The notes below the pieces were generated by a model, which saw nothing but the letters and a program-made list of their open reading frames with translations, did not search any database and was not told the origin of the DNA. DNA of 64,000 nucleotides, taken from NCBI GenBank assembly GCA_951406725.2, contig OX597828.1, positions 43,028,001-43,092,000 on the forward strand, in the 5' to 3' direction. The position numbers and the translations under genes are program-made. Origin of the DNA: Octopus vulgaris (Eukaryota). How positions within the stretch are numbered: position 1 is the first letter of the stretch; each line of letters begins with the position of its first letter. Shown here piece by piece: positions 27,149 through 27,697 of this stretch.

Positions 27149-27155
<7 letters not shown>

Positions 27156-27600
27156 TAGTTATCGCTAAACTAATATGGTAGTTTATAAATTTAAGACTAA
27201 AGCTGTCGCTGATTAGCTCCAAGAGGCCATCGCCTCTAGCTAGCTATATGACACACGAACCTGCGTCCATTATAACCTTCGAACAGGGGAGGTCAGCAGC
27301 TTCACCTTGCTGGTCAGACATCTGCAGACATGTTTCAGGGTATTTGCCTTTTATCAATGCAGAGTAGTCAGACCCAGCAGGTGTCGCTACCGACCGTCTG
27401 TTCGAAGATTTTATTTACCTAATTTCAGTGGAATACATCCACTTGTTTTCAATAATAGAAATATTAGAATTACTAAGTCTCTCTAAAGGAGATTACGGCA
27501 GCGTTACTGGATATTAATAGTTATCGCCAAACTAATATGGTAGTCTATAAATATAAGACTAAAGATGTCTGACCAGCAAGGTGAAGCGGCTGAAACCAAG
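27149..27600 (-). mobile_element. Non-coding retrozyme/pLTR-like element: ~362-bp unit, ~55-bp terminal direct repeat and a short inverted segment
   Basis: 27149-27205 is repeated at 27511-27564, and 27564-27592 is the reverse complement of ~27292-27322. Internal hammerhead present, with (TA)n on both sides. Confidence 0.7.
27322..27362 (-). ncRNA. Minimal type I hammerhead ribozyme, U3-A8 variant
   Basis: Minus strand reads CUGCA-UUGAUAA-AAGG-caaaua-CCCU-GAAA-CAUG-UC-UGCAG. Stem I extends into a longer hairpin (UGCUGG/CCAGCA). Confidence 0.75.
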
Positions 27601-27624
27601 TAGCTTGAAACATCGATGTCTGGG

Positions 27625-27697
<73 letters not shown>

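Follow-up and report, generated by a model that had tools for sequence, protein, structure and literature searches.

A truncated copy of an octopus hammerhead retrozyme family, probably inserted into a TA microsatellite by Penelope-like machinery

Metazoan non-LTR retrozymes, as the accessible part of PMC7229834 describes them, are non-coding units of 170–400 nt with less than 50% GC and one type I hammerhead per unit. The same text proposes Penelope-like elements (PLEs) as their mobilizer and RNA circles as RT templates. PLE insertions show partial tandems, an inverted 5' copy, a tail at one end and a bias toward (TA)n (PMC8557442, accessible part), and the tail is optional and confined to one end in the accessible portions of PMC8557442 and PMC3846280. 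Purified PLE protein extends both strands, uses uncleaved RNA and starts RT at two internal sites, one at each boundary of the tail; in vitro the start site is alike on both strands and the ribozyme is not needed (PMC11167929). PLE hammerheads, according to the available text of PMC4209133, have U3-A8 covariation and a dimer-type helix III. For predicted dimer elements, the accessible part of a 2026 preprint (bioRxiv 10.64898/2026.07.22.740005) reports cleavage in one of nine.

We analyzed a 64,000-nt stretch of Octopus vulgaris DNA (hereafter the window), in which positions 27149-27627 hold about 1.15 units of a 362-nt non-coding unit, called family A, together with an inverted piece and a foreign end piece. 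This element is very probably a truncated copy of a non-LTR retrozyme family, likely pasted into a TA microsatellite by PLE RT and endonuclease, and likely copied from an uncut or re-joined circular RNA. A short non-coding unit, head-to-tail repeats, a type I hammerhead in each unit and the lack of an attached ORF all bear out the initial annotation, which had called the element retrozyme-like.

The element lies between two TA-rich microsatellites, at 27063-27152 and 27628-27758, the (TA)n flanks already seen on first inspection. The left tract is the insertion target, and most standard arm starts elsewhere in the family adjoin such tracts. One full unit (27150-27511) follows, with its RNA sense on the minus strand, 41% GC (0.409) and no ORF, the longest Met-started frame being 39 aa. 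Its first position, 27150, is a fixed start site, S1, and serves as q1 of the unit coordinate q. The first 53 nt of a second lap (27512-27564, minus strand) create a terminal direct repeat, or pseudo-LTR: 27149-27207 matches 27511-27569 at 93% over 59 nt with a spacing of 362, which agrees with the repeat of about 55 bp and few mismatches described initially. Positions 27149-27202 differ from the second copy by three mismatches in 54 nt, at 27166, 27183 and 27191, and comparison with the family makes all three private to the first copy. Between S1 and a second family start site, S2 (27452), lies a 60-nt segment (27452-27511, minus strand) equivalent to the Penelope tail; the window copy has it only internally, and its left end is of the tail-less type. 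The right end consists of a 31-nt inverted family-A piece (27563-27593, RNA sense on the plus strand) and a 32-nt piece of a second hammerhead family, B (27596-27627, plus strand). The extent first assigned, 27149-27627, thus stands for the 1.15 family-A units and the inverted piece, but its last 32 nt belong to family B, which had been missed.

Other repeats surround the element. Directly to its left, between TA tracts, 26753-27060 (minus strand) is a different hammerhead repeat with a CUGAUGA core and a long stem II, and it has 75-80% matches in five other loci. An older family-A relative with a CUGAUGA core at about 43715-43750 occupies 43160-43790 (plus strand) and is apparently split by another repeat; related sequence is found in locus L081. 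A tRNA-like match (58.7 bits) at 28556-28628 (minus strand), followed by repeat sequence, is probably the head of a tRNA-derived SINE. By eye, a 195-aa frame at 3256-3843 (minus strand) resembles the C terminus of a non-LTR retrotransposon, with its restriction-like endonuclease.

The type I hammerhead of the window copy lies on the minus strand at 27322-27362. Stem I pairs 27362-27358 with 27326-27322 (CUGCA/UGCAG) and leads into the core UUGAUAA (27357-27351), a 4-bp stem II (27350-27347 with 27340-27337) and GAAA (27336-27333). Helix III is 2 bp inside the palindrome ACAUGU, and a GUC whose C17 is 27327 puts the predicted cut at 27327/27326, the same site as in the initial annotation. That annotation had also placed the hammerhead within a longer hairpin, and we find that stem I continues into a long imperfect hairpin (27271-27413), in which 27271-27313 pairs with 27374-27413 and the hammerhead lies at the tip. 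The minus-strand fold of the window unit has z = -8.5, with 0 of 100 shuffles as good; the unit of locus L013 has z = -5.1 against its shuffles. In folding models, a typical family-A copy is predicted to adopt the hammerhead shape, and two copies to cofold through helix III. An Rfam scan of 26000-29000 at E ≤ 1 gave no hammerhead match and returned only a tRNA and microsatellite artefacts; the assignment is based on manual anatomy and the family columns.

Core columns are nearly invariant in the 113-139 family copies aligned there. No variation is seen at U3 (113 aligned copies), A8 (123), G12 (130) or A13 (131). Because U3 and A8 do not vary across these copies, the alignment identifies the U3-A8 core as family-wide rather than as decay. 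Changes number 19/1771 in the core and 1139/51044 elsewhere, raw counts that may carry CpG and alignment bias and that we do not take as evidence. At 27349, where 114 of 122 copies keep the letter that pairs, the window copy has a private substitution that costs it one pair of stem II. It also holds a single hammerhead and is a dead end, unable to release a monomer on its own. Li et al. (the preprint cited above) call an element 'active' if it has at least two consecutive hammerheads; L014 and L023 have them, and the window copy does not.

Family A is widespread. We searched a microsatellite-rich assembly of 2.8 Gb in 227 contigs (G000) with three family-A motifs, which gave 340 (a 20-mer), 688 and 298 (the core-plus-stem II motif) exact matches with no match for the reversed controls; there are therefore several hundred dispersed copies. 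The median divergence of pieces from the column majority is 2.0%. From 138 fetched loci, 28 duplicates were dropped, and the remaining 110 distinct loci yielded 180 arms, with those shorter than 30 nt or below 83% identity left out of all counts. Thirty of the 110 loci were picked by best similarity; the others come from the first contigs and were chosen by exact motif match. Because those 30 were selected for matches of about 420 nt, long arms are over-represented: arms exceeding one unit make up 61/180 overall (four exceed two) and 27/118 in the pattern-picked set. All 61 wrap into the same 362-nt unit, and the longest arm reaches 976 nt. We found 22 adjacent unit pairs at 19 places, with at most three anchors in a row, and no long family-A array in the assembly by exact motif search, which collapsed arrays would escape.

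Related sequence also occurs in sequencing runs of four organism labels. Family-A sequence is present in contigs of 14 runs guessed to be RNA, although no run with family sequence is recorded as RNA; these contigs show no strand, ends or level. We discarded a dip in contig depth around the hammerhead, seen in four guessed-RNA runs, as a sign of cleavage, since three probable DNA runs have the same dip. Locus L066, with two matches 3.9 kb apart, was likewise rejected as a case of two pLTRs: it is one copy that was interrupted when another insertion came in later, leaving an 11-nt duplication, and it has no match to a PLE ORF.

Family-A insertions start at fixed places. The RNA-3' starts of the 180 arms fall at S1 (q359-6) in 76 cases, at S2 (q302-308) in 70 and elsewhere in 34. 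Two fixed sites 60 nt apart thus account for 146 of them, and the RNA-5' ends are scattered across the whole unit. The expectation of copies in different circular permutations or multimers was half right: multimers of up to 2.7 units exist, but RNA-3' ends fixed at two sites leave no free permutation. Head-to-head two-arm structures were present in 40 of 71 pattern-picked loci. Among 40 inverted pairs with two standard starts, 39 combine S1 with S2 (p = 4e-11 versus free choice). Overlaps of 1-6 nt mark the junctions of 31 of 41 inverted pairs, a figure that BLAST extension can inflate, and in the pattern-picked set a TA or TAT tract adjoins 79 of the 94 standard starts. The use of one site by each inverted arm is the Penelope 'tail' signature. 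Six of the 34 non-standard starts lie within q122-144, the 3' arm of the long hairpin (L025, L057, L088, L095, L098, L001), which may, post hoc, be a minor start region.

Both arms of an insertion, and its successive laps, carry the same sequence. The two arms of one locus agree at 376/389 subfamily-diagnostic sites and successive laps at 273/280, compared with 66% for unrelated loci. Laps differ at 250/7480 positions (3.3%) and two arms at the same offset at 179/5087 (3.5%; p = 0.62), and by this equality laps appear to have been, at insertion, as alike as two copies of the same stretch. These comparisons point to one template sequence for the arms and laps of an insertion, a pattern predicted by a monomeric circle and also by a young homogeneous tandem transcript. 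Reverse transcription also ran through the ribozyme: the cut site was crossed in 83 of 90 passes with intact columns, and in a set picked regardless of the cut, 6 of 84 arm ends fell in the 18 nt around it versus 9.6 expected from other windows (63/550). Because cDNA passed the site and ends are in no excess there, the template appears to have been uncut or precisely re-joined. The wrapping arms and the read-through support the initial proposal of a greater-than-unit cDNA from a circular or multimeric RNA.

The template could instead be an uncut linear transcript of a tandem source, copied within the same PLE-borne family, with the hammerhead a passenger and no circle needed. We regard this as possible but doubtful. 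Unprocessed RNA is the main substrate of the PLE enzyme, and ribozyme mutants were still inserted (PMC11167929). Uncut RNA accounts for the lack of stops at the cut site just as well as a circle does, three-unit loci exist, and a young tandem of at least three units explains the genomic pattern almost as well. Against this, arrays copied linearly could only shrink each generation, yet arms reach 976 nt and no long source array is assembled. Laps also share non-majority source variants as often as arms do (53/303 versus 30/209), a comparison of low power if the source is young.

The right end departs from the family pattern. Two A's separate the inverted piece from the 32 nt of family B, which comprise the 3' part of stem II, GAAA, the palindromic helix III, the GUC cut site and 7 nt beyond. 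A family-B motif has 22 genomic matches with at most one mismatch (control 0), and the family, with a unit of about 336 nt, likewise has tandem and inverted copies and carries a U3-A8 hammerhead of its own. The piece spans the B cut site and stops 7 nt after it, about 155 and 180 nt short of the usual B ends. Of its 32 positions, 31 agree with B copies, a biased figure because these copies were picked by that motif. The A-B join occurs once in the genome, and the window holds no family-B sequence elsewhere. We somewhat favor a right end made by two short template jumps, to B and then to A, that replaced the S2 arm. A less probable account makes the B piece what is left of an earlier B insertion that either lost sequence on each side or was broken up when family A inserted. 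B copies are indeed older (73-86% identical to one B unit), and TA tracts collect independent insertions. Against a remnant, the piece ends 7 nt after the B cut rather than at a usual B end, matches B copies as closely as the biased figure indicates, and is the only B sequence in the window; two separate losses would also be needed.

We looked for a chimeric plus-strand hammerhead at the right end and rejected it; the letters before the B stem II give no CUGANGA or UUGANAA core. A similar foreign scrap, 114 nt antisense to a PLE ORF, lies on the same side of a short inverted arm at locus L039. At that locus a 238-nt arm/PLE-ORF junction (824-1061 and 1745-1982) is duplicated in inverted form 700 nt away.

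The inverted family-A piece, first drawn at 27564-27592, now spans 27563-27593 and is the reverse complement of 27293-27323 at 30 of 31 positions, with a family allele at its one mismatch. At L098 a short inverted piece ends 1 nt from that of the window copy. The piece begins 3 nt after the predicted cut, which had led the initial annotation to suppose a template switch near the cleaved 5' end. A switch forced by hammerhead cleavage now seems improbable. Across the family, 6/180 arm ends fall in the 7 nt after the cut and 13/180 within 17 nt, neither count above chance under a uniform model (p = 0.14 and 0.08). In the set picked regardless of the cut, ends around it are no more frequent than expected, as given above, and the junction with the main arm at 27563 carries its own 6-of-7 microhomology.

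PLEs abound in this genome, and one lies in the window at 15310-18370 (minus strand), with RT and GIY-YIG (given at 16181-18370) and 729 open codons. It is young, with many 99% identical copies, and copies of its family end on (TA)n, some carrying a tail of about 40 nt and others none. All 30 loci seen have a hammerhead-like motif with UUGAUAA and GCAA in place of GAAA. Another PLE family, seen at L205 (780-930, minus strand), has two ends and a 3' hammerhead with the UUGAUAA core and ACAUGU palindrome of family A. Autonomous PLEs of the same genome thus behave like family A in TA target, two 3' ends and UUGAUAA core. Neither the window PLE nor the L205 family has other sequence in common with the family-A unit: a comparison of the unit with the 3' region of the window PLE family gave nothing above E 2, and its one match among 30 GIY-YIG loci is a tail-to-tail neighbor. 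Family A is present at 1 of 60 PLE loci (30 of one PLE family and 30 GIY-YIG), and among these 60, of thousands in the genome, we found no autonomous partner with sequence homology. The L205-type family may be a candidate partner, and mixed dimers are conceivable.

The initial annotation had named fixed ends attached to PLE ORFs in all copies as the mark of an ordinary pLTR; fixed ends were found, and attached ORFs were not. That the element is such a pseudo-LTR, the truncated end of an autonomous PLE, is very improbable and largely refuted for the sampled loci: all its insertion marks are PLE marks and PLE ORF pieces lie within 1.5 kb in 4 of 110 loci, but all 61 long arms wrap into the same unit, none of the 110 loci has a PLE ORF continuous with the unit on the RNA-5' side, L071 and L205 are tail-to-tail neighbors across a common TA tract, L175 is separated by microsatellites, L030 is 600 nt away in opposite sense, and L039 has the antisense scrap.

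Under the favored reading, a PLE-mobilized retrozyme copied from an uncut or re-joined circle, transcripts of tandem copies would be cleaved by paired hammerheads acting as dimers, and ligation would then close them into 362-nt circles. A PLE protein dimer would nick both (TA)n strands and start one cDNA at each site; the cDNAs would run round the circle, and the two would then be joined by microhomology. In the window copy, the cDNA from S1 would have run 415 nt, and the other end would have received, probably by two short template jumps, 32 nt of B and then 31 nt of A in place of a normal S2 arm.

A broader proposal, which we offer tentatively, is that these insertions record PLE copying itself: a dimer may hold one 362-nt circle, start the cDNA of each strand at its own site, roll through the ligated hammerhead site and jump between retrozyme families. 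The A-B join gives a hint that several retrozyme RNAs pass through a single enzyme, which can shuffle them. A unit of only 362 nt is a convenient substrate for testing two points, the copying of RNA circles by PLE proteins and the priming of each strand at a separate site. If the proposal is true, the puzzle of PLE tails and inverted arms and the circle-as-template hypothesis could be tested directly in vitro with a very small RNA.

Our literature search, which covered the main text of open papers, returned no paper on cephalopod retrozymes, and the term 'ribozyme' is absent from the accessible part of an octopus repeat paper (PMC13282606). The nearest relatives of family A are the metazoan non-LTR retrozymes. 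As the accessible part of PMC7229834 presents them, they share with family A the range from monomers to short tandems and the rod-like fold, and mussel units measure 350-390 nt. Family A differs from them in its U3-A8 core and in reaching at most about three units, compared with arrays of up to 62. Its twin fixed start sites, inverted arms and TA targets go without mention in that part of the paper, where cleavage and circles are demonstrated; family A is known from genomic sequence. The available text of Li, Clavereau and Pollet (2026; bioRxiv 10.64898/2026.07.22.740005) likewise describes dispersed monomers, homology or kinship to pLTRs and a proposed PLE machinery, in a vertebrate survey without junction analysis in that text; for family A, the 60 PLE loci contain no homologous pLTR. 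In plant LTR retrozymes a type III hammerhead lies in true LTRs, whereas family A has type I, one per unit, and variable 5' ends.

The likeness to PLEs is just as close. EN+ PLE insertions, in the accessible parts of PMC8557442 and PMC3846280 and in PMC11167929, share with family A the partial tandem, the inverted 5'-truncated arm, the tail at one end, two RT start sites, the (TA)n bias and microhomology junctions. Family A, by contrast, has no ORF, a tail of 60 nt rather than 30-40 nt, and a single 362-nt unit as the whole element. Its hammerhead has the U3-A8 covariation, small palindromic helix III and predicted dimer folding of PLE hammerheads (PMC4209133, accessible part), within a stand-alone unit and with a helix II of 4 bp, as in canonical motifs, rather than 7-8 bp. 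By the features testable here, all read from sequence, family A appears to be a metazoan non-LTR retrozyme mobilized by PLEs, a class already known, as is each of its insertion marks. To these systems family A adds numbers: inverted arms that take different start sites (39/40), apparently from one template, and a ribozyme site that is no stop.
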